The notes under the pieces: generated by a model
What the model was told of the DNA's origin: nothing
The model's database searches: none
Seen by the model: only the letters and a program-made list of their open reading frames with translations
Program-made: the position numbers and the translations under genes
From: an uncultured Acidobacteriota bacterium
Lineage (GTDB): Bacteria > Acidobacteriota > UBA6911
Length of the DNA: 64,000 bases
Direction: 5' to 3'
Assembly: GCA_963809485.1 (NCBI GenBank)
Contig: CAWEJX010000020.1
Coordinates: forward strand, 64,001 to 128,000
In this document: positions 16,226 through 33,143 of the stretch, in pieces
Numbering within the stretch: the stretch's first letter is position 1
Layout of the letters: every line of letters begins with the position of its first letter

Positions 16226-16330
16226 ATGCGCTGGCCGGCATCCGGCAAAGCCCCCTGGAGCAAGCCCTTGGCGGCTATAGCCGGCATGCGGTTATGTTTT
16301 TTTCACTTAATCCTTGTGAGGTCTCCCGCA

Positions 16331-17449: not shown

Positions 17450-17557
17450 ATCCTTCTTTCGGCAGTTGGTTGACGGCAAACAAGGCCATGCGATTCCCGT
17501 AGCTGTGTATTCTTAAAGCGCCCCGGAGAAGCCGGGGATTTTCATCAGAAGTCAAAG

Positions 17558-18868
17558 ATGAGAAAAGCTGCAAGGCGGATAGTGGAGAAACTTCGTCTGC
17601 ACGGTCACGAGGCCTTCTTCGCGGGCGGCTGGGTGAGGGACTATCTGCTGCGAAAAAAGCCCAAGGATGTGGATATCGCCACAAGCGCCCTTCCGGATGA
17701 AGTGATGAGGCTTTTCCCGAATGCCCGAGCCATTGGCGCGCAGTTTGGCGTAGTCCAGGTTCGCATGTATGGCCGTGCTTATGAGGTGGCTACCTTTCGC
17801 AGCGATCACCTATACCTGGACGGGCGCCATCCGTCCTCCGTATCCTTTTCCGGACCAGAGCAGGATGCTTTGAGGAGAGATTTTACGATCAATGGCCTTT
17901 TCTATGATCCGGTGGCGGATCGGCTTATTGATTTCGTCCGTGGCAGGAACGACCTTCAGAACCGGCTCATCCGAACCATCGGCGATCCGGGCGCTCGTTT
18001 TGCAGAAGATAAGCTCCGGATGTTGCGGGCCGTTAGACTTGCCAGCTGCCTCGATTTCGAAATTGTGCCGGAAACATGGGATGCCATTCGGAAGCTGGCG
18101 CCGGAAATTCTGAGTGTCAGTTGGGAGCGGATCCGCGACGAATTGGTCAAGCTTCTGACGGGACCGGCACCTGCCGCCGGAATCGACCTGCTCCATGAGA
18201 GCCGCCTTCTTTGGCATATCCTGCCGGAACTTGAAACGATGCGGGGAGTTCCAAACATGGGGGCCTCCGGGGATGTAGACGTCTTTGCGCATACGCGGGC
18301 GGCATTATCGCTGCTTCGCAACCCGTCGCATTGTCTGGCATTCGGCACCTTGCTGCACGATGTCGGCAAGCCGTCCTCGTATTCTGTTGATGCCCAGGTA
18401 TGTTTTGCAGGACATGCCAAACTGGGCGGCAGGATCAGCGAGCAGATTTGCCGCCGTTTGAAAATGTCGCGGGAAGAAGCCGGCCGGATAACCGACCTGG
18501 TTGAAGGACACCTTGACTTCGAGCAAGCTAAAGGCCTGAAGGAGAGCGCGCTGCGCAGATTACTCGGCAAACCCTATATTGCCGAGCACCTGGAACTCCA
18601 CCGGGTGAACCTGCTTAGCAGCCGCAGAGACTTGGAGGTTCACACCTACTGCCTGCAAAAACTTGAACAATATCGGCATGAGCCTGCACCTGCGCCATTC
18701 ATAACAGGGGAAGACCTGATCGGGCTGGGTTATCAGCCTGGCCCGATTTTCAAAGAGATGCTTCGAGCCATCGAGGACCTCCAGCTTGACGGGATCGTGC
18801 GTTCGCGCGAGGAAGCTCTCGAATACCTGAGCCGGAGTTACCCGCCGCTTGGCACGGCAGAATCATAA
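17558..18868 (+). CDS. cca: CCA tRNA nucleotidyltransferase / poly(A) polymerase family
   Basis: GGWVRD, DVDIAT, EVATFR, RRDFTING, EDKLRMLRAVR, LLHDVGK. Confidence 0.9.
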   Translation: MRKAARRIVEKLRLHGHEAFFAGGWVRDYLLRKKPKDVDIATSALPDEVMRLFPNARAIGAQFGVVQVRMYGRAYEVATFRSDHLYLDGRHPSSVSFSGPEQDALRRDFTINGLFYDPVADRLIDFVRGRNDLQNRLIRTIGDPGARFAEDKLRMLRAVRLASCLDFEIVPETWDAIRKLAPEILSVSWERIRDELVKLLTGPAPAAGIDLLHESRLLWHILPELETMRGVPNMGASGDVDVFAHTRAALSLLRNPSHCLAFGTLLHDVGKPSSYSVDAQVCFAGHAKLGGRISEQICRRLKMSREEAGRITDLVEGHLDFEQAKGLKESALRRLLGKPYIAEHLELHRVNLLSSRRDLEVHTYCLQKLEQYRHEPAPAPFITGEDLIGLGYQPGPIFKEMLRAIEDLQLDGIVRSREEALEYLSRSYPPLGTAES

Positions 18869-18880
18869 TCGGAGGCCTCG

Positions 18881-20059
18881 TTGAATCCCTTTGTCATAGA
18901 CAGTCGTGCTCAAATTACTGCGGCCGCAGTCCGGCGCCTGCGCCGCGGTCATCTGTGGGTTTATGCCGGGGACGTAGAGCATGAGCCTTCCGGAACTCCC
19001 GCGATTGTTCAGGTAAACGATCCGGCTTCCAATGTTCTGGGATATGCCTTTTATAGCAGGCAATCGCAGATTCGGCTGCGCTTTCTTTCCCGGGATACGG
19101 ATCCGCCTACCATAGATTTTTTGCGGGCCCGTATCCAACAATCGATAGGCAGAAGACGGGGAATGATGGGTGAAGGATCGGCATGCCGTCTGGTTTTTGG
19201 AGAGGGAGACCTGCTCCCTGCCGTCATTGTGGACCGATATGGTGATTACGTCGCATTGCAGACTCTTTCGAGCGGCGCCGACGCGATAAAACCTGCACTG
19301 GTTGACATTCTCGCAGATCTGCTCTCACCGGTGGGAATTCTGGAGAGGAATGACGTTAAGTCCCGCCGTTTGGAAGGACTTGAAGAAAAACAGGGCGTTT
19401 TGTGGGGGAGTGTTCCCAAGGAAATTGAAATATTGGAAGATGGAACCCGATTCCTGATCGATTTAAGGGGTGGACAAAAAACAGGCTTTTTCCTCGATCA
19501 AAGTCAGAATCGCATAGCCGCCAGGAAGTATGCTTCCGGCCGGGCATTGGATTGCTTCAGCAATACGGGGGCTTTTGCGCTCCAATTCGCGCGATGCTGC
19601 GATTCCGTATTGGCGGTCGACATATCCGCCGAATCACTGGAGATTGCGCGCCGCAACAGCGAACTCAACGGCATCAAAAATGTCGATTTTGTGGTCGGGA
19701 ACGTTTTTGATTTTCTCCGGGAAATGGAAAGCGGGGGTCAGTTGTTTGACACAATATGCCTGGACCCTCCGGCATTCGCCAAAAACCGGAAGTCGCAGGC
19801 CGGCGCGAGAAGCGGATATAAAGAAATCAACTTGCGGGCTCTCAAGCTGCTGCGGCCGGAGGGTATTCTGATTACGTCGAGCTGTTCTTATCACATTTCC
19901 GAGACGGATTTCTTTGATCTGGTCTGCGATGCTGCCCGTGACAGCCACCGTTCCCTTCAGGTTATCGAGAGACGCGGGCAGGCGAATGACCACCCGGTGC
20001 TGGCAGGCATGCCTGAAACGCAATACCTCAAGTGCTTCTTCCTTCGGGCTATTCATTGA
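18881..20059 (+). CDS. rlmI: RlmI-family rRNA (m5C) methyltransferase
   Basis: GHLWVY PUA-like N-terminus, GQKTGFFLDQ, LDPPAF, TSSCS. Confidence 0.85.
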   Translation: MNPFVIDSRAQITAAAVRRLRRGHLWVYAGDVEHEPSGTPAIVQVNDPASNVLGYAFYSRQSQIRLRFLSRDTDPPTIDFLRARIQQSIGRRRGMMGEGSACRLVFGEGDLLPAVIVDRYGDYVALQTLSSGADAIKPALVDILADLLSPVGILERNDVKSRRLEGLEEKQGVLWGSVPKEIEILEDGTRFLIDLRGGQKTGFFLDQSQNRIAARKYASGRALDCFSNTGAFALQFARCCDSVLAVDISAESLEIARRNSELNGIKNVDFVVGNVFDFLREMESGGQLFDTICLDPPAFAKNRKSQAGARSGYKEINLRALKLLRPEGILITSSCSYHISETDFFDLVCDAARDSHRSLQVIERRGQANDHPVLAGMPETQYLKCFFLRAIH

Positions 20060-20421
20060 TTGCCGGATAACACCGTCTCAGAAACACGATTCCCCTTCCT
20101 GAAGCTCGATGAGAATGGTCCCAAGCACCTGCTCGCGGTTGGGCGCAGATGAAGAACAAGCCAAAAGGGCAGCGCATCGCCTGGCGGAGACGAAGCCATA
20201 TTCAAAATCCGATTCTCAATATCTCGCCTATTTCAAAGGAGTTCAGGGACGTGACAATGGGTGGCTCAGTTGCAGGACATTGGGCAGGTGAGGACGGGCC
20301 TGTTGGCTCGTCCTCACTTGTTAAAATCAAAAGGCAGAAGACTTTGTGGAAATGACGATGGCAACCGTCCTGTTGCTTTGAGCATTCTCCACTGGAGGCG
20401 TGCGCCATTCAGCATAAAGCG

Positions 20422-21261
20422 CTACTTCTTCTGCGATTCCCTGGCAATATCTTCGGGCGTCGCATCTTTGGCGCAGCGGAAGCCGAAATCATATAGGGCT
20501 TCCGGCTGAGCTCCCAGGCGCTCCCATATATGCGCAACCTTCCCTCGGTAGCGCGAAGACAGGCCTCGGACCACACGGTGAGTCTCTCCGGATACGGGAT
20601 TTCTCTTGGGATTTCCCTTATAGGTCTTATACCAGGAAGAGGTCCATTCCTGAACATTCCCGAGCATATCAACGGCACCATAGGGGCTTATATCATCGTA
20701 TTGAGCAATTGCAGTCGGCTTGGATGGTCCAAATTCGTAGGTGTTCGCCCGCTTTTCCCCCCAGTCATTTCCCCAGGGATAGCCTCGTCCATCGGTTCCT
20801 CGGGCTGCTTTTTCCCATTCCTCTTCAGTCGGAAGCCGCTTCCCTTCTGCTTTGCAGTAAGCAGCCGCATCGTTCCAGGTAATATAAACAACCGGGTAAA
20901 GGCCTTTATCCGGGGTAAAGAACAGCCTCCAGTCCTTGCCCTCTTTGGCGCCTTCACCGGTGTAGCCGGTTTTGATGGAAAAGTCCAGGAATTGAGAATT
21001 TGTTACTTCGTATTTATCGATATAGAATGCCGGCAAATCGACCTTAAGCTGCGGATAGGCATCGTTATTTTTGTCATCCGTGCCCATGATGAACTCTCCT
21101 GCCGGCACGAAAACCATCTCTCCGGGAATAACGGCCGGCGTGGCGATTTCGGCAGCGCCTTCGCCCTCAACCTGTTCAGCGGAATCCTTGCGGCCGCAAG
21201 CGCTTAAGGCGCAAACGGCCAGTAACAAAATAATAAAAGCAAAATATGCCTTTCTTGACAT
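20422..21261 (-). CDS. FGE-sulfatase (SUMF1/EgtB/PvdO) domain lipoprotein
   Basis: Lipobox LSAC; FYIDKYEVTN, KRLPTEEEWEKAARG, YPWG, DMLGNVQEW, GFRC. Confidence 0.9.
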   Translation of the reverse strand: MSRKAYFAFIILLLAVCALSACGRKDSAEQVEGEGAAEIATPAVIPGEMVFVPAGEFIMGTDDKNNDAYPQLKVDLPAFYIDKYEVTNSQFLDFSIKTGYTGEGAKEGKDWRLFFTPDKGLYPVVYITWNDAAAYCKAEGKRLPTEEEWEKAARGTDGRGYPWGNDWGEKRANTYEFGPSKPTAIAQYDDISPYGAVDMLGNVQEWTSSWYKTYKGNPKRNPVSGETHRVVRGLSSRYRGKVAHIWERLGAQPEALYDFGFRCAKDATPEDIARESQKK

Positions 21262-21578
21262 GATTTCTCCTTGGGAGTTGTGCATAAATCCCAAAATGCG
21301 TGATGCTTTATACAGTAACTCGGCCATCCAGTCAAATTCAGCCTGGTGACGAAATCACAAAACCTCCGACCATGATTATTATGGTATAGACCTGGCCAAA
21401 ATCAAAGCCCGCTGCTTTGCCCGAATCCCCTGAAGCTCTCAAACCGGCATGGCCATTAACGCCTTAAGTGCCTGCAGATGCTCATTGTTATTGCAATTGC
21501 TGCAATCTAACACTATCATTCGCAACCATAAACGCTATCGTGGCCGTAGTTGCCGAGTCCCCTCGACTGAGGCTCGAG

Positions 21579-23954
21579 ATGGCAGAGATGCATTGGAAGT
21601 TGCGATCGGACCTTGAGATTCGTTCGGAGCCGAACTCAGGGATTATCATTAAGGATCCGATCACCGGCAGTTTCTATAGATTCCCTCCCGTGCAGGCTTC
21701 AGTGCTGGAGCTATTGGATGGGCAGGCCGATGCTGCGTCCATAGCCGCATATGTTTCCGAGAAACATCAGACCGAAGTCCTGGAAGAACAGGTAACGATT
21801 TTTGCCGGAAAGCTGCAAGCGCTTGCTCTGCTTGATCATCCCTCTTGCTGGGCCAAGCTCGAAAATCTGGGTAAGAAAAAGCGCGGAATTGTGCGAAGCA
21901 TACTTTCGATCAAGATACGCGCTTTCAATCCCGACACATTTTTGACCGAGCTCGAAAAAAAGGTTCGTTTCTGCTTTAGCCCGGCTTTTGCGACGATTGC
22001 CTTGGGCACCATGGCTATCGCCATGGTCATTTCTGTTCTGAATTGGGAATCGCTGTTTGTTTCTGTGCGCTCCCTTTTCTCCCTTTATTCCGTTCCGCTT
22101 ATACTGACGGTAGTTTTTGCCGTCATGACTATCCATGAAATATCGCATGGCGTTGCATTGAAACACTTTGGCGGGAAAGTGGAGGAGATGGGATTCATGA
22201 TTCTCTATTTTATCCCGGCCTTCTATTGCAATGTCAGTGACGCATGGATGCTGAAGAAGCGCGAGCGGATCCTGGTCTCATTGGCGGGAAGCTACATCCA
22301 GGTATATCTCTGGGCTCTGGCCACAATAGCATGGAGGCTACTGGCGCCCGAAATCCTGCTAAGCCGGATTTGCCTCATTGTTATAGCCTTCACGGTTATT
22401 CAGACCCTGCTCAACTTTAATCCGCTGATCCGCTTGGATGGCTATTATGTTCTTAGTGATTTTATCGAAGTCCCCAATTTGAGGCCTAAGGCTGTTAAGT
22501 ATATCAAGGATCGGGTTCAGTCAATGCTTACTGGAGCGCCCCATGTAAGCGCTGGCGGACTAAACTCAAGAGAGAAAAGGTTATACTTGTATTACGGGAC
22601 TTCTTCTTTGCTCTTCACTGCGGCTCTGATAGGGATTATGTTTCAGCGTCTCGGAGAGTGGATGGTTCGTGAATATCAGTCATGGGGCGTGCTTTTGATA
22701 TCGGTGCTTTTTTTAATGGTTGTACCGATTGCGAAGAAAGAGAACGCGACGAATTCCGGAAAGATGCTAAAGCTGGTTATAAAGCGCACAGGAAAAACCC
22801 CTTGGGCCCTCATAGTTATTTGCCTCCTGTTAGCAGCCGGGTTCCTGCCCTGGGAGCTGAAAATTTCGGGCGATTTTACGATCATAGCCTCCAAGAGGGT
22901 TTCTGTGACACCACAGGTAATGGGGAATCTGAAGAAGATACATGTCGGGCAAGGCAGCCAGGTTCGTGCGGGGCAGTTGCTGGCAGAGATGGAAAATCTG
23001 GAGATTGCCAATAATTACCAGGAGACCAAAGGGGAACTTGCATCCCAGATGGCTTCACTGGATCTGCTGAAAGCCGGATCCAGGCCCGAGGAAATTGAAA
23101 GAGCGAAGCGGCTTGTGGAGACAAAAAAGGCTGAGCTTTATAACGTATCCCGAATCGCCCAGGAGCGCGCGGTTTTACTTGAGACTATCGCCAAAAAGGA
23201 GGCCGAACTGGCCAATGCCCGGCTAAATCACGAACGGTCGCAAAAGCTTCTTGATACCGGGCTGATAGCACGAAATGATGCGGACAGGGACCGGACAGCT
23301 TATGAGGTTCGGCAGAAGGAGCTTTCGGAAGCCAAGGGGAAGCTTAAGGTTTTGGAGGAGCAGACGGATCGGAGCCGGGACATCAAGAACAAGGAATTGG
23401 CTCAGGCCAATAGCGAACTCAGGATACTCCTGGCGGGATCGCGCAAGGAAAACATACGGGCGGTTGAGTCTCAGGTGAAAAAGCTGGAAGAAAAGCTGTA
23501 TATCCTTGAACGTGAAATTGAGCTTTTAAAAATACGAAGCCCTATTGATGGTGTAGTTTCCACATCCTATCTCCAAAACAGAATCGGCGATTTTTTGGAC
23601 AAAGGAGATGCATTCTGTGAAATTGTCAGTGAAGGAACGGTGGTGGTGGAAATGCCCGTTCCTGAGAAGGAGATTGGAGATGTGAGCCTGGGATTTCCGA
23701 TCACCATCAAAGTTCGCGGATATCCGAAGCGCTGGTACAGGGCTCATGTAACCAGCATCGCGCCGGTGGCTGCAGTCCATGGGCTGGAACGGATTGTGGT
23801 AGTGCAGGGCCAGTTGGAAAATCCGGATGGCAGTCTCAAAGCCGGGATGACGGGAGTGGGCAAGATTCTATGCGGAAAGCGGATGATTTTTGACATCGTA
23901 TCCCGTCGCCTGATCCGGTGGCTTCGGACGGAGTTTTGGGAATACCTGCCTTAA
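21579..23954 (+). CDS. PqqD/RRE - M50 (site-2) peptidase - HlyD-type periplasmic adaptor fusion
   Basis: N-terminal RRE-like segment (IIIKDPITGSFYRF...LLDG...KLQALALL); HEISH (HExxH) and NFNPLIRLDGYY; several TMs; lipoyl half-motifs flanking a long coiled coil; LKAGMTG. Confidence 0.9.
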   Translation: MAEMHWKLRSDLEIRSEPNSGIIIKDPITGSFYRFPPVQASVLELLDGQADAASIAAYVSEKHQTEVLEEQVTIFAGKLQALALLDHPSCWAKLENLGKKKRGIVRSILSIKIRAFNPDTFLTELEKKVRFCFSPAFATIALGTMAIAMVISVLNWESLFVSVRSLFSLYSVPLILTVVFAVMTIHEISHGVALKHFGGKVEEMGFMILYFIPAFYCNVSDAWMLKKRERILVSLAGSYIQVYLWALATIAWRLLAPEILLSRICLIVIAFTVIQTLLNFNPLIRLDGYYVLSDFIEVPNLRPKAVKYIKDRVQSMLTGAPHVSAGGLNSREKRLYLYYGTSSLLFTAALIGIMFQRLGEWMVREYQSWGVLLISVLFLMVVPIAKKENATNSGKMLKLVIKRTGKTPWALIVICLLLAAGFLPWELKISGDFTIIASKRVSVTPQVMGNLKKIHVGQGSQVRAGQLLAEMENLEIANNYQETKGELASQMASLDLLKAGSRPEEIERAKRLVETKKAELYNVSRIAQERAVLLETIAKKEAELANARLNHERSQKLLDTGLIARNDADRDRTAYEVRQKELSEAKGKLKVLEEQTDRSRDIKNKELAQANSELRILLAGSRKENIRAVESQVKKLEEKLYILEREIELLKIRSPIDGVVSTSYLQNRIGDFLDKGDAFCEIVSEGTVVVEMPVPEKEIGDVSLGFPITIKVRGYPKRWYRAHVTSIAPVAAVHGLERIVVVQGQLENPDGSLKAGMTGVGKILCGKRMIFDIVSRRLIRWLRTEFWEYLP

Positions 23955-24057
23955 ACGCACGTATTACATTCGTTATTCAAGCTGCTGTCGGGACAGAACT
24001 CTATTACTGCATATCGGCATACCGCACGCTATAAATTACAGAATTAAACAATTTATA

Positions 24058-24087
24058 TTGACAAGATCATTGGAACCCTGTTATTTT
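24058..24087 (+). promoter_or_regulatory. Possible sigma70 promoter upstream of the micro-peptide region
   Basis: Perfect TTGACA at 24058-24063 in an AT-rich tract, 18-bp spacer, weak -10 TATTTT. Confidence 0.35.
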
Positions 24088-24511
24088 CCACAACATAGCT
24101 AAGAATATGCTTTGGGAAACGCGCATCGGGAACTTGCTTTTTTGAGTTTTTGGTGGCGAATCCGGCTTGGCTATGAAGATCAGCATTCTCGAATAGCTCT
24201 CTCACCTTGATGAGCATCTGGTCTGTTTTCGCATGGGGAAAACGGATTTGGATGCCTCTCCCAATCTGAGCAAGAGCAAAAGCTGATGTTGCGGCAGGGC
24301 TTTGCGGTTGAGGTTTAAGTTCTTGCTTCTGATGCACAAGCCGGAGGCGGATATCTGTGGATATGCCGTGCCGGATCAAGCCATCCCGTAAGCGGGGCTG
24401 CCTCGAAGCAAACCTGGAGCAACCAAGCTTTGTTGTTCCTATTGGGTTTCGAACTGTAAGGGGGCAACCTCGAACAGAAAGATTTCCAACGAGGAAGCTG
24501 TGTCTGTGTAT

Positions 24512-24528
24512 TTGGCTGAATTAGTGCC
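24512..24528 (+). promoter_or_regulatory. Putative sigma54 (-24/-12) promoter
   Basis: TTGGCTGAATTAGTGCC: GG(24514-15)-N10-GC(24526-27); predicted +1 near 24539, immediately before RBS AAAGGAGG at 24541. Confidence 0.5.
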
Positions 24529-24553
24529 GTTCCGCGCAGCAAAGGAGGCCTTT

Positions 24554-24580
24554 ATGGCAAGCGGAATTCTTTGGCTGTAA
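24554..24580 (+). CDS. Micro-peptide MASGILWL (8 aa), candidate leaderless signal peptide
   Basis: AAAGGAGG-CCTTT-ATG GCA AGC GGA ATT CTT TGG CTG TAA; C-terminal GILWL resembles SVLWM of the next ORF; an upstream in-frame GTG at 24500 would give a 26-aa version. Confidence 0.6.
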   Translation: MASGILWL

Positions 24581-24632
24581 TGCTCGGGGACACCCTCAGT
24601 GCCACCGAAGCAAGTTCAAAAGTGGAGGCTGT

Positions 24633-24692
24633 ATGCAGACCGAAATCGAAATTCTCGAAACTCGTGAAAATCCTAGTGTTCTCTGGATGTAG
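24633..24692 (+). CDS. Small precursor peptide MQTEIEILETRENPSVLWM (19 aa)
   Basis: RBS GGAGG at 24624-24628; acidic leader-like IEILETRENP followed by hydrophobic SVLWM; downstream of the RRE-M50-HlyD gene. Confidence 0.75.
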   Translation: MQTEIEILETRENPSVLWM

Positions 24693-24731
24693 GATCTAGC
24701 GTGTTTGTAGGACGAGAAAACTTTCTCGCAT

Positions 24732-24789
24732 TTGATCTGCAGGTCAGATCTGGGAGTTTCTCACTCCTGGATTCTGATCTGCAGATCAA
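24732..24789 (+). repeat. Long inverted repeat (stem-loop) after the peptide genes
   Basis: TTGATCTGCAG-GTCAGATCTGGGAGT / ACTCCTGGATTCTGAT-CTGCAGATCAA; no U-tract follows. Confidence 0.8.
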
Positions 24790-24929
24790 CAATAAGTCAT
24801 TGGCCTGCTAATCCATTGAAATTATTGGTCTTGGTAATTTTCTTTTGACTAATGCCCAACCAATCGATTGCCGATTAGTTCACGGAGGCCTTTTAGATAG
24901 AAATACTGATTTCTCGGCCTGAGATTTTT

Positions 24930-27346
24930 ATGACTTGGCATGATCTGCCCAAGAAGCTTAAATATTTTATCGTTCTCATAAATCTTCTAGCTCTTCCGAT
25001 TTTTGCCCTATCCTCGTGGAATCTCATCCAGCACCCGCCAAGTGACAAAGGCTGGATAATCCTAACTATTTTAACCGTCTTAACTGTACCGGCATTCCTC
25101 GGCTTCCCTCGGTGAACACAATGGCACTCATAGGGGATGCCTATGTAATGTCAATTGCAATGATGTACGGGTGGACACCTTGTATCGTGGCAACTGTATG
25201 CCATAGTTTGGTCGCTTCCATTTTTGGCATACAAAAATCAAAACGATACATTTATCGGATTGCATTCAATGTATCGAGCAGTGTTTGTTGTGCCTGGGCT
25301 TATAGTAGCATCTATCAACTAATGAATCCCGGGCTGAGCAAGCATGCAGCGGACATAGCTTTGCCCACCGTTGCACTGACAATTACATTTTTCGCCCTGA
25401 ATTCTCTTCTAACAGCAGTAGCCATAGGACTGGCATCAGGGCAAAATGTCCTTCGATTTTGGACCGAAAATTACCTTTCTTTGGGGGTCGAATTTTCCAT
25501 ATCTTCTGTTTGTGCTGCGCTAATAGTAACCCTCTACCAGATGGGTCCTTGGGTACCATTCATTGCAGCTCCATTTATAAGCGTAGTCTGGGGATGGAAT
25601 AAATTGAACAAAGCAAAGGCCATGGAAGCCGAAAGGCACTTGAAGGAGCAAGAAGAGCTTTACATGCGGACGGTAGAATCACTGGCACTGGCTGTTGACG
25701 CAAAAGACCAAACCACGTACGGACACATTCGACGGGTCAAGGTTTATGCGACTGGTCTTGCAAAGCTGGTAGGCATCAAAAATCCTGACGAGCTTAAAGC
25801 AATTGAAACTGGTGCATTACTTCATGATATTGGCAAACTGGCCATTGACGATTACATTCTGAATAAGCCCGGGCGCCTTTCGAAACAGGAATTTGAAAAG
25901 ATCAAGATGCATGCAACTGCCGGCGACGAAATTTTGCAGCAGATCCGATTCCCGTTCCCAGCGGCTAAGTACGTGCGTTACCATCATGAACGTTGGGACG
26001 GACAAGGCTACCCGGACGGACTAAAGGGAGAAGAAATACCGCTTGGGGCCAGGATACTATCCATTGCTGATGCTTTCGATGCCATTCGCTTTTCGCGCCC
26101 CTACAAGCTTTCGATTGTGCAGGACGAAGCAGTTGAAATCCTTCGATCTCAGAGCGGGACTGTCTATGATCCTAAGTTGATTCAGCTATTTTTAGAGCAT
26201 ATCGTGGAATTGGAGGAAGCCGCTGCAAAAGAGTCCGAAAGTGTTCCTGAGCTGTCCTTCAGAAAGTACTTCGAAAAAGTCGATCAAGCAATATCTGCTG
26301 CCGATGTTTCGCTCTCTGGCCTTTCTGTTCCACAAGATATCCCGGCCGAACTTGTACAACTGGCTGAATTTTGCAGCACGATGACCGGACATCTCGATCT
26401 AGGAGATATTCTCTCTGTTATTGCGCGAAAGATGGAGCGACTGGTTCCATATACTACTTGCGCATTTTATGTTGATGACGGGGAGGATCACGTACAAGCA
26501 ATTCATGTAAATGGGAGGTTTTCTGAAGTTGTCCAAGGACATAAAATCAGCATGGGCAAGGGAATAAGCGGCTGGGTAGCTGCATATAGACGACCCATGA
26601 TTAACACTGGACCCGCACTTGATTTTCAGGGGATCCAGGGGGACTTTTCCGCATTTAAGGATGCTCTTGTTGTACCAATTTCCCTAGATGACGAATCGCT
26701 GGGAACAATATCGCTCTATGCGCAGGAACCCATCGCATATAGCCCGTATGAATTGAGCATATTGCAGACGTTATCAAGCTTTATTGCGCCGTTAATCTCT
26801 GATGCCAAAAAACATGCAGCCGTTTCATCTGAGCACTTTATCGATCCAACAACACATATTCACCGCGTTTCCTACCTGACTGCAATCGGCCCGCAGCTTA
26901 TCTTCTTTCGCTAGCAAAAACCGGGCTCCTGTTTCGCTGATTTATCTCGGGATTAGGAATTTATCTCAAATCATACGTGTGTATGGAGATGCTGTATCCA
27001 ATTCGGTTGTTAAAAAGGGTTGCGGCATCCATCAAACCCGAGCTACGGGAGACAGACGTTCTTGGTTCGATATGGGCATCAGGCATTTGTAGCCTTTCTG
27101 CCTGGCGTTCGTGACGATCAAGCTAATCATTGCGTGGTCCGCCTTCTTCATCAGATACGGAATCAAGGATTGGCTTTTTCCGGCCAAAATGTGCTGGTCG
27201 ACTGTAAAGCAGGTATATCTTCATTCCCAAAAGATGGAGCCACGATATTCGCTCTAATCCAGTCCGCGCAGGAGAATATTTTGGATGCTGATCCTGGGGC
27301 ATCGGTGGCGGACAATAATGTCGTGGATTTCCTGCCGCGCGCCTAA
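24930..27346 (+). CDS. Membrane sensor - HD-GYP - GAF - degenerate GGDEF protein, interrupted by about 4 single-base frameshifts (sequencing error or pseudogene)
   Basis: Multi-TM N-terminus; LHDIGK, HHERWDGQGYPDGLKGEEIPLGARI, ADAFDA; GAF (GKGISGWVAA); reconstructed C-terminus LRETDVLVRYGHQAF; shifts near 25107, 26902, 27018, 27061. Confidence 0.85.
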
Positions 27347-27372
27347 AACCATATTTTGCAATATTATAGAAA

Positions 27373-30300
27373 TCAGTTCGCGCGAGAACTCCGGAACTGA
27401 CGATATTCCAGATAGCAATTGTTGCGCTTTAAGAACAACATAATCGACGAATATTGCCGAGCCGGGATTCCCAAAATCTCAAAAGCCTCACGATAATTCC
27501 CCTTAGCCTGTTTCAGCGCCTTATGCAATACGGCTCGTACAACTGATGGGCCCAATTGGTGACTCGAAAATGGTTTTTTCACCAAGTCTGCGAAGCTCCC
27601 TCTTTTATCAAGGATGTCGTTAAAAAGCCCCTCGGCAGTTTCAAGTTCCAAATTTGCCTCTCTGGGCATTGCATTGCGAACATCCAAAGGCAAGTGGTTA
27701 ACATCGAGAATTGAGTCGGTTGTTGAGAAGTATGCCCCTTCAACAATCTTTATCAATTCCCTGACGTTTCCTGGATAGGAGTATTTTTTTAGTACATTAA
27801 TCGCACTGGGTGAGAACCTCTTGACCCTACCTCCTTCCATTTCAGCTGTTTTCGACAAAGCCCATGCGAGCAATATAGGGATATCATCTTGGCGTTCCCG
27901 CAATGTCGGCACCTGAATTTCCATAGCCTTCAGTCTGTAGTAAAAATCCTTTCGAAATGTCCCTATCCTCATCTCCTTTATTAGGTCTTTGTTGGTTGCA
28001 GCAAGTACTTGAATGTCGATTTTGCGGGGTGCTGTTTCTCCCAATCGCCTTATTTCGCGCTCTTGCAGCACACGCAAGAGCTTGGCCTGCAGGCGAAGTG
28101 GCAAATTTGCAATTTCATCCAGAAAAATTACTCCCCCGTTTGCCGCTTCCAGTAAACCTTGTCGGTTTTCTGTTGCACCGGTGAAGGCACCCTTCCTATA
28201 GCCAAAAAGCTCGGCTTCCGCTAGGCTATCGGATAAAGATCCACAGTCCACGGGCACAAATCGGCCGGATTTACGCCTACCAGTTCTATAAATGGCCCGA
28301 GCCACCAATTCCTTCCCGGTACCGCTCTCGCCTGTTATCAATATATCTAGAGGTGAGTCTGCAGCGCGACCTATTCGCCTGCGCAATTCCTTCACCGCTA
28401 TGCTTTCTCCAATAATCTCCGCATATCCCTCTCGCGCTTGATGCAGATATTGTTCAAGCTCTGTTTTTTCCCTAATGAGCTGCTGATGCGCCAAGGCATT
28501 ATCAATCGCAATGGCTGCAAGATTACAGAAGGCGGCAAATAGACTAATGGTAGACTCACTTAGGCTTCTCGCAGGCGAAGAATGATCGGCATAGAGCACA
28601 CCCAGCACTCGTCCAGATACCTTCAATGGTGCGCATAAAATTGTCCCCAATTGAAAGGCAACAATGTGCTCCTTGTTTGCTACACGAGGGTCTCCTTGCG
28701 CATCGGCACTCACGAAGGGACTTCCTTTACGGCTTACTTCTTCTAATATATCCTGGCTAATAGCATGGGCCCCATCTAATGACTCTCGTTTGATATTCCT
28801 TCCCTTAAATAACTCGAGATTACCAGTAGATTCATTTTTTATAAACACCAAAGCCCTTTCAATCCCAACTGCTTCAATTAGCAAATCCACGATTGATTCA
28901 AGAAGGGGATCCAATTCCCTTATCGAATTGATAACTCTGCTAACTCGTAACAACGTTCGGATCTGCTGTTCCTGGATATCGTCAACAGCAGAGCTGCTAA
29001 AAATCCTTCGCTTGTTTTGCAGACTCTCATTGCGCTTCTCACACTCCGACATGGTATGACGTCGAGCAAAGGCTGCCCAGAATGATTCAAGCTTCGCTTT
29101 TGGCACTTTCTCCGCAATTATTTGAAGGCACTCTATCGTTTTTGAGCTGTGGTATAAGCAAGATTCCCAATTTGATAATATTTCTTCAATGCGTGACATT
29201 TCTGCATGGGAACGCCATTGAAGCTCGAAGTCTCCACAATCGCGCGAGAGTCTGATAGCGATTTCAACCTCATTTTTTGCATCTGTTATGGAATTATCTG
29301 AGTTCAACTTGAGCTTTCGAAAATTAAGCCCTCCCAATATTAAATGCGCTTTAGCCATAAGAAGATTACTATTCATCGCCCTTGCCAACCTCATTGCATT
29401 TCTAATAACCCTTGAGGCACCCTGTAAATCGCCACTTGCTGTAAGGCATTCGCCCAAATACAGTTTTATCAGGCATGATTGATACGGCCAGTGCTTTATT
29501 GTTACGGCCTTATTCAAGTTAGAAAGCAACCTAATTGCATCGGCTTCCCTTGCTCGCTGAAATAGAATGCATGCGCGGATGGCTTCGCCAAGTTCCCTTT
29601 CGTATACGGGTGCTTCAGAAGTTTCAAGTTTAGCCAATTGAGTAACATAGGCTAGGGAAAGATCAAAATCTCCGAGTTCGAAATTGAGCCACGCCGATAG
29701 ATAGGAGGCTTGCGCTTTTGAAAAAATGGCTACGAAAGGGCTTATTTCGAAATCTAGTTTGCATAATATATCGTTGGCACCTTGATAATCTCCGGTGGTG
29801 ATTTTGATGTCAGCCAGAGTGGCTTGACATGAGTGTTGGAGTATCGGGTTTCCGCTTTCAATAGAGAATCTAACCGCGCGTTCAGAGGCCGCCTTTGCCT
29901 CTGCCAGTTGTCCATCTCGGCATAGGCATTCAGCGTAATTGCTTAGAGCTTGGGATCTTAGGGGAATAGATCGACATTCTTCGCTGATTTTAACAGCGCG
30001 TTCATGATGCTCCAATGCCTTCGCAAATCTACCTCTTGCAAGCAAGCAGGCCCCATAATGTGAATGTGCCACTCCCAGTGCGCCAAAATCTTCATATTGC
30101 GCAAGGATATCAACAGATTTTTTTGCCGCACTAACAGCAGAATCTAAGTCGCATGCAACACGCTGAAGAGCGGAAACCAACGCATAAATTTGGCCTACTG
30201 CGACGCTCGCCTTTTCCCTGGACATTGCCCTAAGAGCTCGATTTAAAAGCAATAATCCTTGACGTGGATGTGATTTTATAAGCTGACAGTAAGCTAGGTG

Positions 30301-32757
30301 TCTGAGCAGTGAAGCCCTAATTGTCGAGTCCTTAGTTCCATACTGCCCCTTTAAAACCAGCAATGCCTTATTTGCAAATAACTCCACTTTTGCAGCATTC
30401 CCATCGTGACGATAGGAGACGGCCAATTGGAGTAGAAGGTTGGATTGCGTTGTGCTAGAAATCCGCCCAATTCTACTCAGGCTTCGCGTTATAAGCCTGG
30501 TTGCCTTCCTAGCCGATCCAAGGGCACAATAGCTCTCTGCAGCATTAATCGTAATTTCAGACAATACATCAGGAGGGTAGTTATTTCTCGTAGCCAAGAC
30601 ATACTCATAAAACAAAAGCGCACTATCATATGAATGATCGTTTTTGCATTCTGCAGCAGCATTGAGGGCATATTCAGTTGCCTTTTCGCGATGTTCACCC
30701 TGCATATAATGTACGGCCAATTCTTGGAGGTGGCCTTCTGGACCATACTCCTGTTCAAGCACCTCGGCGATTTTGCGATGCATCCTCCGTCGCATCGGCT
30801 TTGGCAGACTGCCACGGATCACTTCCGCAATCAGTGCATGGCGAAATTCCACGGTTTCATCTGATTCCTTAGCCTCCACACGCACCATCTGGCGATGGCT
30901 CAGTTCCTGCAACGCCTCGTTCGTTTCAGCCGAGCTTTTGGACATGACTGAAATCAGCGTTCCTTTGGAAACAGCCCGCTCCATTAAAGCCAGCCAGCGA
31001 GACAGCTCCTGGGCAAGTGAGGACAACTGGTGCAGACGACGCTGAAGAACCGCACTCAAGCTGGCCGGGACATCGAGGTTTTTCAAATCCTCATTGATAA
31101 ATATCCACGCACCCGACTCACAGCGGAGCAATTCCTGCTCAACCAGGTGCTTCATCATTTCTTCCAGAAAAAACGGATTGCCCCCAATATTTCTATACAT
31201 CCAGGATCCCAAGGTCACCCTTAGATTCCGATCTCCCGTCATTGCGGCAACCAAGTCCTGAACGTGATCCTGAGATAACGGTTCCAGCGTTACGACTTCC
31301 CCGCGCTGTTGCCGCACAACAAGCTCCATGAGCTTACCCAGCATTGCCTTGGGCTCCTCCCCGGTACGCAGGCTGACACACAGAAGAACCGCATGAGCCT
31401 GTATATCCGAACTCAGGTAATCCAGAACTGTGCAGGTGGCTTCGTCCGCCATGTTAAAGTCATCCAATAACAGCAGGGTTGGATGCTCTTTAAGACGCCG
31501 GACCAGTTCCCGGGTCAGCAAGTCCCGGAATTGCCCGGCCGCAAACTCAGAGGAAGACTCAAACGCGCCCGAATCCGGCACCCGGGGTGAATTCCCAAAA
31601 TCAAATAGCGCTTCTCCCTCCGCCGGCTCGGTTCGGGCCAATATCTGGCGGAAGGGTGCGTACGATCCATCCTCGCGCGTCCCACAAGTCCCCTCAATAA
31701 CCCTCCATCCTTCCAGAAGTGCCCAGCTTCTTAGTTCCTCCATGCACCTTGTCTTCCCGGATCCGGCTTCTCCTGTCAGGAATACTGTCCACCCCCGGCG
31801 GTTTCCCCGCACTCTATCAGCGCAATCCTGCAGGATCGTCATTTCTTTTTCCCGGCCGACAAACCGGGTGATGGAAAAATGACTTTCCAGTTCTTTCACG
31901 TCCATCGCCAAACAGTCTTTGCCGATGGCCTCGCCCAGCGGCCGCAACACTTCTTCCCTGGAATGAGGCCGTTTTGAAGGATCTTTGTCCAAAAGTCTGC
32001 TAAGCAGATGGGATAGCGCCGCACCCCCGCTCAGACGCTCAATCGGGCGCAAATCGAAACTACCCTGCAGGTGTTTCTGGATCAGGAAACCGGGATCCTC
32101 ATCTCCAAAAGGAAGGCGTCGGGTCAGCAACTGATAGATCAAAACCCCCAAAGAATACAGATCCGATTCGGCGTTCGCTTTTCCGCCCAGCAGGATCTCC
32201 GGCGCCGTATATAGCGGGATCGCATTAATATTCCCCTGCGGGGTCTTCCGGATCCATTGTCCGAGGCCGAAACCCATGAGTTTCAACCGCTCATCTTCGT
32301 GCTCATGTTCCCGCAAAATGGTATTGGAGGATTTAAGATTCCCGTGCACGATTTCCTGCGAATGCAGGTAAAGAATTGCTTTGGACAGAGACACGATCAG
32401 CTTTAGCTGTTCCTCGATATCCATCCCTTCCGAGGCGGAATAGATATCCTTCCCGGCAACAAACTCCTCTGCCAGAAATACTCTCCCCGTATCTTTGAGA
32501 ATCCCGAAATCCAAAAGCCGAACAAAGCTTGGATGACTGAACCTGCGCAAAAAGGAGAATTCCGCGCTCAGAACACTGAGCGGTCCCGAATCCGTGTCGA
32601 TTCCATGCAAAATCTTTATCGCGACCCGAGCTTTCCCTCCGCCAAGATCCCGGCATCTGTAAACTTCCCCGGTATTGCCCGCTCCCAAAAATTCTTCCAC
32701 CTGATAGCGTTCCGCGATCACCTGCGCATCCCTGAGCCGTTTGTGCGCCGTCTTCAT
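27373..32757 (-). CDS. Ser/Thr (pseudo)kinase - P-loop NTPase - TPR - GAF - sigma54 enhancer-binding protein, 1794 aa
   Basis: Kinase fold (LGAGNTGEVY, VAIK, YTAPE, DLYSLG); FVGRE, GEAGSGKT, GGNPFFLEE; helical TPR-like region; GAF (PLKVSGRVLGVLYAD); GESGTGKE, GAFTGA, FLDEI, PGNVREL. Confidence 0.93.
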   Translation of the reverse strand: MKTAHKRLRDAQVIAERYQVEEFLGAGNTGEVYRCRDLGGGKARVAIKILHGIDTDSGPLSVLSAEFSFLRRFSHPSFVRLLDFGILKDTGRVFLAEEFVAGKDIYSASEGMDIEEQLKLIVSLSKAILYLHSQEIVHGNLKSSNTILREHEHEDERLKLMGFGLGQWIRKTPQGNINAIPLYTAPEILLGGKANAESDLYSLGVLIYQLLTRRLPFGDEDPGFLIQKHLQGSFDLRPIERLSGGAALSHLLSRLLDKDPSKRPHSREEVLRPLGEAIGKDCLAMDVKELESHFSITRFVGREKEMTILQDCADRVRGNRRGWTVFLTGEAGSGKTRCMEELRSWALLEGWRVIEGTCGTREDGSYAPFRQILARTEPAEGEALFDFGNSPRVPDSGAFESSSEFAAGQFRDLLTRELVRRLKEHPTLLLLDDFNMADEATCTVLDYLSSDIQAHAVLLCVSLRTGEEPKAMLGKLMELVVRQQRGEVVTLEPLSQDHVQDLVAAMTGDRNLRVTLGSWMYRNIGGNPFFLEEMMKHLVEQELLRCESGAWIFINEDLKNLDVPASLSAVLQRRLHQLSSLAQELSRWLALMERAVSKGTLISVMSKSSAETNEALQELSHRQMVRVEAKESDETVEFRHALIAEVIRGSLPKPMRRRMHRKIAEVLEQEYGPEGHLQELAVHYMQGEHREKATEYALNAAAECKNDHSYDSALLFYEYVLATRNNYPPDVLSEITINAAESYCALGSARKATRLITRSLSRIGRISSTTQSNLLLQLAVSYRHDGNAAKVELFANKALLVLKGQYGTKDSTIRASLLRHLAYCQLIKSHPRQGLLLLNRALRAMSREKASVAVGQIYALVSALQRVACDLDSAVSAAKKSVDILAQYEDFGALGVAHSHYGACLLARGRFAKALEHHERAVKISEECRSIPLRSQALSNYAECLCRDGQLAEAKAASERAVRFSIESGNPILQHSCQATLADIKITTGDYQGANDILCKLDFEISPFVAIFSKAQASYLSAWLNFELGDFDLSLAYVTQLAKLETSEAPVYERELGEAIRACILFQRAREADAIRLLSNLNKAVTIKHWPYQSCLIKLYLGECLTASGDLQGASRVIRNAMRLARAMNSNLLMAKAHLILGGLNFRKLKLNSDNSITDAKNEVEIAIRLSRDCGDFELQWRSHAEMSRIEEILSNWESCLYHSSKTIECLQIIAEKVPKAKLESFWAAFARRHTMSECEKRNESLQNKRRIFSSSAVDDIQEQQIRTLLRVSRVINSIRELDPLLESIVDLLIEAVGIERALVFIKNESTGNLELFKGRNIKRESLDGAHAISQDILEEVSRKGSPFVSADAQGDPRVANKEHIVAFQLGTILCAPLKVSGRVLGVLYADHSSPARSLSESTISLFAAFCNLAAIAIDNALAHQQLIREKTELEQYLHQAREGYAEIIGESIAVKELRRRIGRAADSPLDILITGESGTGKELVARAIYRTGRRKSGRFVPVDCGSLSDSLAEAELFGYRKGAFTGATENRQGLLEAANGGVIFLDEIANLPLRLQAKLLRVLQEREIRRLGETAPRKIDIQVLAATNKDLIKEMRIGTFRKDFYYRLKAMEIQVPTLRERQDDIPILLAWALSKTAEMEGGRVKRFSPSAINVLKKYSYPGNVRELIKIVEGAYFSTTDSILDVNHLPLDVRNAMPREANLELETAEGLFNDILDKRGSFADLVKKPFSSHQLGPSVVRAVLHKALKQAKGNYREAFEILGIPARQYSSIMLFLKRNNCYLEYRQFRSSRAN

Positions 32758-33143
32758 ACCCGCTCCACTGAGAAAGCCTCGCTGTTCGATGCCGGATTTC
32801 TCAATAAATGCTTCTGCCCCGAAAAATCATTCTGCAGCCCTGATGTCCCAAGCCCACTGGTTGTAGCGGCTGTGAAAAAGCGGATTTGGCAACTGCCCCG
32901 CCCACCCCATTGTCCCCGGTCCCGCATCCCTGAAGGACCTTCCTCTGCTGCGGCGCGCCCTGAAATGCCGGCAGGGTTGCGACGCCTCACGCCGAAGGTT
33001 CCCGAGGAACAGCGGCAGCCTTTTAGAAAGCTTGAATCCTATTGTAAACCATATAGCCTGCGACATTTAAAGTCATTCGGATTCATCCCGCCGCAATGCT
33101 CGAATTTCTTGACAGCACGGCAGAATTCGATAAAACTGCCCGC

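Follow-up and report, generated by a model that had tools for sequence, protein, structure and literature searches.

Two very small open reading frames in the genome of an uncultured Acidobacterium are coding, conserved genes, and they probably give rise to an undescribed kind of small, secreted peptide with a tryptophan. Both lie on the forward strand of the window, the 64,000-nucleotide stretch of DNA analysed here. The short ORF (24554-24580) encodes MASGILWL in 8 codons, from an ATG at 24554 to a TAA at 24578-24580, and follows a Shine-Dalgarno (SD) sequence graded as strong, AAAGGAGG, at 24541-24548. The long ORF (24633-24692) encodes MQTEIEILETRENPSVLWM in 19 codons, from an ATG at 24633 to a TAG at 24690-24692, behind the SD sequence GGAGG at 24624-24628, and its product divides into the leader MQTEIEILETRENP and the core SVLWM. 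Re-reading the sequence returned both peptides and both SD sites at the positions reported in an earlier note on this DNA, which had left the start of the short ORF open between ATG 24554 and GTG 24500. Since the in-frame 5' extension is not conserved and the SD sequence stands directly before ATG 24554, this ATG is the start; in two related loci (L040 and L045), four codons are all that separate it from the preceding stop.

Six-frame scans of the host's own 6.04-Mb genome located a single copy each of the leader motif and of MA[SN][AG]ILW, both at the micro-ORF locus, and five instances of ILW[LM] followed by a stop, the short ORF being one of the five. This uniqueness, together with the recurrence of the micro-ORFs 3' of an orthologous gene in relatives, excludes a chance origin. 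The peptides match no NCBIfam or Pfam family, and ESM Atlas queries returned just "hypothetical protein" clusters. The 19-mer itself falls below the length minimum of the NCBIfam search, so long-type variants of 20-23 residues were used instead; six of these and two LEERIAP peptides gave no match at E <= 10. A likeness of the leader to LEPR-XLL, presumably the N-terminal domain for which an NCBIfam model is named, had been suggested earlier and found no support, as the 20-23-residue variants match no NCBIfam model.

Across a comparison set of 32 genomes from the same uncultured Acidobacteriota family, the short type occurs in 28, the long type in 23 and both in 21; one further genome (G033) carries a variant of the long type. 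Of the eight genomes lacking a long type (the G033 variant counted as long), seven have less than 730 nt of downstream sequence before the contig end, as do two of the four that lack the short type. The micro-ORFs always lie 3' of a gene for an RRE-M50-HlyD fusion protein, in one to three copies per genome and often in tandem; in G031, they stand at the extreme start of a different contig, as a pattern search showed. Contigs stop within 1 kb of the fusion gene in 11 of 30 cases, as expected from tandem repeats.

Substitution patterns point to selection on the encoded peptides. In 19 distinct 27-nt sequences of the short ORF, the variable columns at codon positions 1, 2 and 3 number 3, 2 and 6 of 8, pN/pS is 0.12, and the stop is TAA in 5, TGA in 9 and TAG in 5, always at the same codon position. 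For the long ORF (17 distinct sequences), the corresponding counts are 11, 4 and 15 of 19, with a pN/pS of 0.28. An SD core at -16 to -4 is present before 32 of 34 short ORFs and 31 of 32 long ones, compared with a background of 1157 of 11005 (10.5%) for all ATGs in the same loci, and a strong SD of at least five bases precedes 29 of the 34 short-ORF copies. Ribosome-binding site, leader and Trp, whose conservation across relatives the earlier note had proposed as a check, are all conserved, and the reading frames are kept. These data bear on the idea that the ORFs are untranslated and owe their conservation to an RNA or DNA element, which would suit a region lying within a structured RNA. That idea is strongly disfavoured and very improbable: changes cluster at the third position of codons, the stop stays at one fixed site while taking all three forms, SD sequences persist where flanking spacers diverge, and frames are preserved even as copy number and order vary.

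Codons 1-14 of the long type are near-invariant and encode the leader M-Q-T-[ED]-I-E-I-L-E-x-R-E-[NT]-P, followed by a core of 4-10 residues that is variable apart from its invariant Trp. Conservation falls right past the Pro, which fits a leader/core boundary at this point. The short peptide is invariant within the genus, and in sister genera it reads M-x-N-P-[SG]-A-I-L-W-L, retaining the N-P that closes the long leader. The short ORF therefore appears to be a truncated paralogue whose product may still be processed, which weakens its earlier description as a leaderless peptide that would stay in the cytoplasm as a private agonist.

The order of the two genes invites a regulatory reading of the short one. 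It comes first in 20 of the 22 loci having both, 45-63 nt 5' of a long ORF in most of them, behind a very strong SD sequence in 29 of 34 copies; its peptide is constant despite wobble changes, and the transcript is highly structured (folding z = -5.6). Arrest peptides such as TnaC act by stalling ribosomes, and the 8-codon ORF could likewise be mainly a cis-regulatory upstream ORF whose nascent I-L-W-L-stop stalls the ribosome and sets the translation or stability of the long ORF. However, the 8-mer and the long peptides have a core in common, and in sister genera the N-P as well, which suggests common descent and a common target rather than a ribosome-directed sequence. Moreover, short copies also stand after or between long ORFs in four loci (L050, L043, L046 and L056), and the hairpin in the spacer between short and long ORF is insignificant (mean z -0.84; 2 of 19 below -1.5). 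We consider such a regulatory function unlikely as the main role, and regard the short ORF as a peptide gene in its own right.

The gene upstream (21468-23954, forward strand) encodes a fusion of a PqqD-like RRE domain, an M50 HExxH intramembrane metalloprotease and an HlyD adaptor, as assigned by Pfam, NCBIfam, motifs and fold. Its true start is probably near 21579, since orthologues align from that point. The HlyD part is a membrane-fusion protein: Pfam HlyD_D23 (2.9e-18) and HlyD_3 (2e-13) both exceed their cut-offs, Biotin_lipoyl_2 matches at 5e-05, and TIGR01730 RND_mfp scores 101.6 bits against a cut-off of 94.9. For the protease part, the best-scoring curated families are the daptide protease (daptide_HExxH, NF041824; 4e-62, 210.5 bits, under the cut-off of 300) and YydH/LiaK of the epipeptide system (NF058609; 3.6e-16, 59.6 bits, under the cut-off of 225). 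In the 792-aa form, HEISH at residue 187 and NPLIRLDG at 282 each end a hydrophobic segment, giving the M50/site-2 protease arrangement of HExxH in a membrane helix plus a zinc-ligand motif. HExxH with the downstream N-x-x-P-x-x-x-x-D-G motif recurs in all 30 family loci and in all five distant loci checked. Pfam Peptidase_M50 (PF02163) scores 17.4 bits (E 0.0029) against a gathering score of 27.2, and some close relatives carry a precomputed PF02163 match.

At the N-terminus of the fusion, the RRE profile matches TbiB1 (E 8e-4) and PqqD (0.047) in the PDB, and Pfam PqqD gives E 0.013, under its cut-off. The AF2 model (pLDDT 81.8) has a beta3-alpha3 topology, with strands at 14-17, 23-26 and 33-36 and helices at 38-46, 53-64 and 70-82, that is, the three-stranded sheet and following three-helix winged-helix bundle of a PqqD-like RRE. 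Foldseek places TbiB1, TfuB1 and PqqD at ranks 1-5 (prob 1.00, target-normalised TM-score 0.61-0.78), with no match at E <= 0.001. The N-terminal 100 residues thus share the fold of lasso-peptide B1 proteins and PqqD (target-normalised TM-score 0.73-0.78) alongside a weak profile match; unlike in those systems, the RRE forms one protein with a membrane protease, and the leader motif is unlike that of lasso peptides. The domains, motifs, curated-family matches and fold bear out the earlier reading of this protein as an M50-type HExxH protease fused to HlyD, with an RRE in front. A complex prediction for the RRE of a distant homologue (G311, 91 aa) and its 37-aa LEARDSP peptide, run without controls, gave 0.14 against a mark of 0.34 and counts neither for nor against binding.

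The same association of leader and protein extends beyond the family. A link between L-E-x-R leaders of the LEERIAP type and M50/HlyD proteins, suggested in the earlier note, is confirmed at distant homologues: tandem small ORFs with LE[EKQ]RIAP flank fusion homologues in five genomes (G040, G130, G117, G096 and G308). In G311 and G354, the peptide carries LEA[RK]DSP and then SILWF, which connects the two leader types. Overall, small flanking ORFs with LExRxxP, mostly in tandem, occur at 6 of 25 distant homologue places, in other Acidobacteriota families, and are absent at 19; five of the positive places fall within the seven best distant matches. Pattern matches in L102, L107, L109, L111 and L118 and a second one in L101 were left uncounted as chance, since they come without an SD sequence, a tandem partner and the full L-E-x-R-x-x-P. 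The G083 locus (L094), one of 23 loci scanned, has no match; G083 and G215, flagged as unpublished, otherwise enter only the tally of 50/301 from the distant-match search. Outside subscription journals, the literature searched held no paper on the peptides, the LEERIAP leader or the RRE-M50-HlyD fusion, and the matches for LEERIAP were unrelated word fragments.

A closer look at the surrounding genes separates this locus from two known RiPP systems. It resembles the daptide and epipeptide systems in its leader/core logic and in having an RRE-type recognition domain, but its core is far shorter, its protease is fused to HlyD, and the protease scores lie under both family cut-offs. No modifying enzyme is encoded near the micro-ORFs, whether radical-SAM, aminotransferase, methyltransferase or other tailoring type. 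Assignment to the daptide system fails on both score (210.5 against 300 bits) and the lack of tailoring enzymes among the neighbours, and assignment to the YydF/YydH epipeptides fails because the ORFs of 16000-34000 include no radical-SAM epimerase or ABC exporter. Four distant loci share no common neighbour other than the peptides and the fusion gene. Neither the micro-ORF locus nor the four annotated distant loci encode an inner-membrane transporter or an outer-membrane channel, so that the energised transporter and channel of tripartite or type I export are missing there and the export route and its energy source are unexplained.

These features also weigh on a different function for the peptides, as membrane-active or antimicrobial products, or as substrates of an enzyme encoded elsewhere, in the manner of bacteriocins or RiPPs rather than signals. 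The homology of the protease to RiPP leader peptidases (daptide, YydH/LiaK), its RRE domain, the tandem variable gene copies with a hypervariable core, reminiscent of bacteriocin arrays, and a FemAB-family enzyme gene found between the peptide and protease genes at one distant locus would all suit such a role. Yet the predicted cores of 5-9 residues would be unusually short in a membrane-active agent, the locus has no conserved immunity or modification gene, and it is single-copy and chromosomal with family-wide synteny. A membrane-active, antimicrobial or modified product is therefore quite unlikely, and a signal is the function that we favour.

Downstream, a membrane HD-GYP/GAF/GGDEF c-di-GMP protein is encoded at 24930-27346 (forward strand), as indicated by Pfam and synteny. 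In the window this gene is interrupted, its 802-aa orthologue mapping in two frames across a TAG at 26912-26914. On the reverse strand (27373-32757), Pfam identifies a 1794-aa protein with Ser/Thr kinase, STAND AAA, MalT-like TPR, GAF and sigma-54 activator domains, a conserved neighbour that is syntenic in most family loci; its MalT-like TPR scores 41.8 bits, under the cut-off of 45, and belongs to another family than the RRNPP receptors. An FGE-sulfatase-like lipoprotein is a further neighbour. Synteny in the family extends to housekeeping genes, so the adjacency of the HD-GYP and kinase genes carries little information, and the HD-GYP/GAF/GGDEF protein is put forward as a candidate receptor by inference only.

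The micro-ORFs lie behind a conserved promoter and a structured leader RNA. A sigma-70-type promoter at 24058-24087 (forward strand; TTGACA, an 18-nt spacer and a TG-extended TATTTT) has 10 of 12 matches, which is insignificant alone, as shuffles give 1.2 such sites; its TTGACA is conserved in a 26-locus alignment and lies 84-140 nt 5' of the RNA core in 24 loci. The 5' end of the RNA is predicted near 24095. Strict and relaxed patterns found no sigma-54 promoter 5' of the peptides in 26 intergenic gaps, and a GG-N10-GC site at 24513-24527 was dismissed, being present in the two closest genomes only. The conserved structured 5' leader RNA (24097-24330, forward strand; core 24179-24283) runs from the single-stranded UUCUCGAAUA through stems GCUCU/AGAGC, CUCA/UGAG and UUG/CAA to a variable covarying hairpin, and 24 of 26 intergenic gaps contain the 9-mer GAATAGCTC. 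In the core, RNAalifold finds 15 base pairs, of which 8 show compensatory changes, and numerous G-U pairs; because of the latter, a plus-strand RNA is preferred over a 108-aa minus-strand ORF at 24053-24379. That ORF has no Pfam match and was rejected, its frame being broken and its matches numbering three among the window and 20 loci. At the 3' end, a terminator-like hairpin (24713-24728) within an element at 24713-24793 is followed by a long near-perfect hairpin at about 24725-24793, both on the forward strand. Sub-threshold Rfam mir-492 matches on both strands are chance and reflect the latter hairpin.

Sequences from this region are present in RNA libraries. Among the matches listed, 26-49% of sampled words occur in 20 runs (17 of them recorded as RNA) from 9 studies, and Logan contigs of four studies span the RNA core to both ORFs. 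They include a 558-nt contig at 24110-24667 (X12), a 471-nt contig at 24191-24661 (X1) and contigs at 24317-24641 (X9) and 24370-24661 (X6); such contigs give no RNA ends, strand or level. Contig ends at about 24661-24687 and the joints 24212>24633 and 24286>24632 are probably due to relatives or to branches in the graph where the leader is conserved. Positions 23800-24107 and 24724-25100 lack contig cover in four runs, which is not counted as a finding; on this ground, we do not regard DNA carry-over as the explanation of the contigs. The metatranscriptome libraries with the transcript region come from sediment, wetland and soil.

With such a leader, the RNA could itself be the chief product, a riboregulator or riboswitch-like leader with the micro-ORFs as secondary passengers. 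Covariation is seen in its invariant core, along with a single-stranded 10-mer that is conserved, the transcript folds with the z-score given above, and contig word depth in the RNA libraries reaches high values (about 4300 at most, in X6), albeit a poor measure. The core model R1 also matches once in the host genome (E 2.9e-20), once each in 24 of 40 other family genomes and in none of 150 other genomes of the phylum sample; Rfam has no match to the leader RNA (24097-24330) at E <= 1. Even so, the peptides are more widespread than the RNA core, three genomes (G030, G034 and G035) having the peptides without an R1 match, and the ORFs are under protein-level selection. The RNA as chief product is distinctly improbable, although an RNA function and the peptide reading are compatible and not exclusive. 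Staphylococcal RNAIII, a regulatory RNA carrying hld, offers a parallel to the present structured RNA of about 0.6 kb, which bears very small ORFs and appears as contigs in RNA libraries of several studies; in contrast to RNAIII, the present RNA core has no Rfam family and no known regulatory target.

Taken together, the micro-ORFs are best explained as translated genes of one peptide family, with the 19-mer as a leader-guided, M50-cut, exported likely signal and the 8-mer as its constant partner, an explanation that as a whole we judge moderately probable. Both ORFs would be carried on one strongly structured RNA of about 0.6 kb, starting from the conserved sigma-70 promoter some 140 nt past the end of the RRE-M50-HlyD coding sequence. 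The 19-mer would be a precursor whose acidic leader docks on the cytoplasmic RRE of the neighbouring fusion. The M50 zinc site would then cut it at or just past the Pro, and the freed hydrophobic peptide of 5-9 residues (x-Φ-Φ-W-x; SVLWM here) may leave through the HlyD-like periplasmic part. Because the core differs between species and the leader is constant, a pheromone-type cell-to-cell signal is the likeliest role of the released Trp peptide, with the membrane HD-GYP/GAF/GGDEF protein or the kinase-TPR-sigma54 regulator as possible receivers. The 8-mer, seen as a paralogue minus the RRE-binding leader, with a stronger ribosome-binding site and nearly always first, would most likely be a constant partner peptide for the same target or the same protease.

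Firmicutes use short hydrophobic pheromones such as SHP/Rgg, ComS-XIP/ComR and the enterococcal pheromone/inhibitor pairs, which the M50 protease Eep matures and PptAB exports. Our locus resembles them in its very small genes, its hydrophobic C-terminal end as the presumed active part, its M50-family membrane zinc protease and cores that vary between species, and in those systems related peptides can compete for one receptor. Unlike there, the host is a diderm Acidobacterium, protease and HlyD adaptor form a single polypeptide, an RRE domain accompanies an acidic leader with L-E-x-R-x-x-P at its end, one member has just 8 codons, and no RRNPP-type receptor is assigned. PatS-type micro-ORF morphogens of heterocystous cyanobacteria likewise combine a diderm bacterium, an ORF of fewer than 20 codons, an active C-terminus and a diffusible oligopeptide, the last being proposed here. 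Their sequence is unrelated, however, the processing and export machinery differs, and none of our results ties the peptides to development.

Acidobacteriota rank with the most abundant bacteria of soils, and to our knowledge little is known of their communication and small products; the present host is an uncultured member from soil or sediment. The locus provides a concrete system, comprising 8- and 19-codon genes under protein-level selection, a recognition-protease-adaptor fusion and a structured RNA outside Rfam. The L-E-x-R-x-x-P leader class gives a handle for finding many more unannotated peptide genes, which standard gene callers overlook. If the peptides are signals, pheromone-style signalling with M50-type maturation reaches a diderm phylum. 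A bolder and doubtful proposal combines an ATPase-free RRE-M50-HlyD machine that recognises, cuts and exports, the L-E-x-R-x-x-P class, a two-part language, a dual-function RNA and a c-di-GMP readout. If true, Acidobacteriota would hold a widespread, undescribed class of leader-guided peptides, and this family a language pairing an exported Trp peptide that varies by species with a constant partner lacking a leader; peptide quorum sensing would then exist in a soil phylum of diderms that has no known case.

The micro-ORF pair begins with the short ORF MASGILWL, which runs on the plus strand from ATG 24554 to TAA 24580 behind the Shine-Dalgarno sequence AAAGGAGG (24541-24548). The long ORF, MQTEIEILETRENPSVLWM, follows on the same strand from ATG 24633 to TAG 24692, preceded by GGAGG (24624-24628). 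Both ORFs and their ribosome-binding sites are present in the window sequence exactly as the earlier note described them. Its alternative short-ORF start at GTG 24500 is ruled out, because the in-frame stretch upstream of ATG 24554 is not kept among relatives. When the complete 6.04 Mb assembly is scanned in all six frames, the leader motif and the MA[SN][AG]ILW motif turn up at this locus only, and ILW[LM]-stop five times in total.

Both the source organism and every close relative of it are Acidobacteriota that have not been cultured and are represented by MAGs. Within this family, 35 of 36 other genomes have the upstream fusion gene (RRE-M50 protease-HlyD); outside it, one of 24 genomes of the same class does. 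Sequence downstream of 30 orthologues was extracted, with longer stretches for 20 genomes, and the same two ORF types recur there. The short type reads M-A-[SN]-[AG]-I-L-W-[LF] in the window's genus and M-x(2-4)-[AG]-I-L-W-L, often M-x-N-P-[SG]-A-I-L-W-L, in sister genera. The long type joins the leader M-Q-T-[ED]-I-E-[IV]-L-E-x-R-[ED]-[NT]-P to a core of 4-10 variable residues around an invariant Trp. Conservation among relatives, which the earlier note proposed to scan for, is extensive: 28 of 32 genomes carry the short type, 23 the long type (a further variant in genome G033 lies outside this count) and 21 both.

Most absences coincide with contig ends. With the G033 variant counted as long, seven of the eight genomes lacking any long-type ORF have a contig that ends less than 730 nt past the fusion gene; G033, the case set beside those seven, carries the variant. 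The same early end applies to two of the four genomes without a short ORF (G007, G024), and the other two had 1500 nt of downstream sequence: G014 holds a long ORF only, and G031 has its peptide array at the start of another contig. Copy number varies, with two short and three long ORFs in G025 and three of each in G035. Eleven of the 30 orthologous contigs (L010, L012, L014, L017, L021, L022, L024, L025, L029, L032 and L033) stop 231-950 nt past the fusion gene, in or near the peptide array, as expected if tandem copies break assemblies; the arrays are probably under-assembled in MAGs. In G033, one long-type copy (locus L041, near 8237, minus strand) continues in frame after ...RENP into unrelated residues and is either a frameshifted copy or a sequencing error; the leader of a second copy is divergent (MSTDILELEERENP...).

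Substitution patterns carry a clear coding signature. Across 19 distinct versions of the short ORF, variation affects 3 of the 8 first, 2 of the 8 second and 6 of the 8 third codon positions, with a pooled pN/pS of 0.12, and the stop alternates among TAA, TGA and TAG at a constant codon position. For 17 distinct 19-codon versions of the long ORF, the variable columns number 11, 4 and 15 of 19 and pN/pS is 0.28. The flanking spacers are free to diverge, ribosome-binding sites excepted. Nearly every ORF of either type has a Shine-Dalgarno core ahead of it (32 of 34 short, 31 of 32 long), against a background of 10.5% for all ATGs of these loci; strong sites of at least 5 bases belong to 29 of 34 short but 3 of 32 long ORFs. 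The short ORF comes first in 20 of 22 loci with both types. The micro-ORF observation is thus confirmed, and far more strongly than the window sequence could reveal.

The 600-nt gap that separates the fusion gene from the short ORF holds a predicted promoter, TTGACA-18-TG-TATTTT (24058-24087, +), conserved in a 26-locus alignment, and a conserved, covarying structured RNA (24097-24330, core 24179-24283, +) that forms the 5' part of the peptide transcript. An invariant block (24187-24212 plus 24262-24278), common to 24 of the 26 gaps, starts about 95-100 nt past the predicted RNA start near 24095. The fold comprises an invariant, single-stranded UUCUCGAAUA, then stems GCUCU/AGAGC, CUCA/UGAG and UUG/CAA closing a variable hairpin. 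With 23 aligned sequences, RNAalifold predicts 15 pairs, eight with compensatory changes and many of them G-U, which assigns the RNA to the plus strand. Searched with a covariance model, the own genome yields a single match (24179-24283, E 2.9e-20), and 24 of 40 other genomes of the family yield one each, without exception next to the fusion gene; 150 further genomes of the phylum sample yield none. Rfam holds no family for this RNA. The 704-nt stretch 24097-24800 has a folding z of -5.6, and the RNA could be a riboswitch-like leader or a riboregulator.

Twenty listed public runs from nine studies, 17 recorded as RNA, contain 26-49% of the sampled words of 24040-24900. Contigs were compared from four runs, each of a different study (one sediment, one wetland and two soil libraries, one of the latter prepared with oligo-dT), and they span the RNA core and both ORFs: X12 covers 24110-24667 (558 nt, 14 differences), X1 24191-24661 (471 nt, one difference), X9 24317-24641 and X6 24370-24661, all uninformative on RNA ends, strand and abundance. 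In additional contigs, from relatives, the match is confined to the RNA core and the stretch that codes for the leader.

The fusion gene, ending at 23954, encodes an N-terminal domain, an HExxH membrane protease and an HlyD adaptor (Pfam HlyD_D23, HlyD_3). Among curated families, the protease part scores best against those of the daptide protease and of YydH/LiaK, in each case below cut-off; HExxH and N-x-x-P-x-x-x-x-D-G motifs are present in 30 of 30 family loci and also in five distant ones. A profile of the N-terminal domain (about 115-140 residues, window protein plus 30 homologues) matches the lasso-peptide RRE TbiB1 among PDB sequences at E 8e-4, and TbiB1, PqqD, TfuB1, PaaA and PqqCD make up five of all seven matches at E <= 10. 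In its AlphaFold2 model (pLDDT 81.8), three strands precede three helices, and a fourth helix is also present. The top Foldseek ranks go to TbiB1, TfuB1 and PqqD (probability 1.00, target-normalised TM-score 0.61-0.78), followed by other RRE-bearing RiPP enzymes, with no match reaching E 0.001.

Similar peptides accompany some of the more distant homologues. The RRE-protease part matches 50 of 301 sampled phylum genomes, a tally that takes in the unpublished G083 and G215, mostly in open frames of 700-900 residues. Small ORFs with the same leader logic flank six of 25 distant places scanned, and the seven top-scoring distant matches include five of the six. Genome G040 has two ORFs and G096 three with ...LEERIAP.... 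G130 carries four identical or nearly identical tandem 31-codon ORFs with ...LEKRIAP... (L120, 5433-5816, -), convergent with the RRE-M50-HlyD gene, and G117 three nearly identical tandem ORFs of this type (L079, 139-490, +); in both, the leader ...LNVERLEKRIAP precedes an 8-residue tail beside a distant RRE-M50-HlyD homologue. G308 (L101, 1448-2912, +) has one LEQRIAP ORF, whose long tail is a Ser/Gly/Lys-rich repeat; after it come a FemAB-family gene, which may encode a tailoring enzyme, and then the RRE-M50-HlyD gene. G311 has ...LEARDSP then SILWF..., and G354 the same peptide with LEAKDSP. The G311 peptide gene is preceded, at about 55 nt, by a perfect sigma-54 promoter consensus, TGGCAC-N5-TTGC (L083, ~2616-2680, -); the window's family, in contrast, has a sigma-70-type promoter, yet a sigma-54 activator gene next door. 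The link drawn in the earlier note between LEERIAP motifs and M50/HlyD proteins is real, since LE[EKQ]RIAP small ORFs flank distant RRE-M50-HlyD homologues, and L-E-T-R-E-N-P in the window is, by its residues, a variant of this leader type. NCBIfam and Pfam searches return no match for LExRxxP-class peptides, the ESM Atlas lists the G040 peptide merely as a hypothetical protein, and the abstracts searched mention nothing of them.

Downstream of the peptide ORFs lies a membrane HD-GYP/GAF/GGDEF gene (24930-27346). It is interrupted: an 802-aa orthologue aligns in two different frames, with 24930-25109 and with 25103-27343, and reads through an in-frame TAG at 26912-26914, which indicates either a pseudogene or an assembly error. 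The opposite strand encodes a 1794-aa protein with Ser/Thr kinase, STAND AAA, MalT-like TPR, GAF and sigma-54 activator domains. Both neighbours are candidate receivers by position only, because the family synteny extends to housekeeping genes. Genes for a transporter, an outer-membrane channel or a tailoring enzyme are absent from the neighbourhood of the peptide locus. An FGE-sulfatase (SUMF1-like) lipoprotein gene (20422-21327, -), divergent from the fusion gene and kept in most family loci, has no evident link to the peptides.

Taken together, the pattern fits leader-guided cleavage coupled to export: the leader is nearly invariant and ends in Pro, the core varies, and the neighbouring gene joins an RRE to a membrane zinc protease and a periplasmic adaptor. 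The earlier note had one copy cut after Pro and exported and the other retained in the cytoplasm. This reading finds partial support. Its first half agrees with the pattern; the 8-mer, on sequence comparison, is a truncated paralogue of the long peptide, because it lacks the acidic leader but has the same core and, among sister genera, the N-P as well. The 8-mer is invariant, and strong translation is predicted from its Shine-Dalgarno site; it may remain inside the cell, undergo trimming, compete with the long peptide or influence translation in cis. In the abstracts searched, no earlier description was found of such a peptide system for this phylum and fusion architecture. The predicted products would be hydrophobic Trp peptides of 5-9 residues that differ between species, and species-differing short hydrophobic peptides are a hallmark of pheromone-type signals. 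The system would represent a new variation on leader-guided, protease-matured exported peptides.
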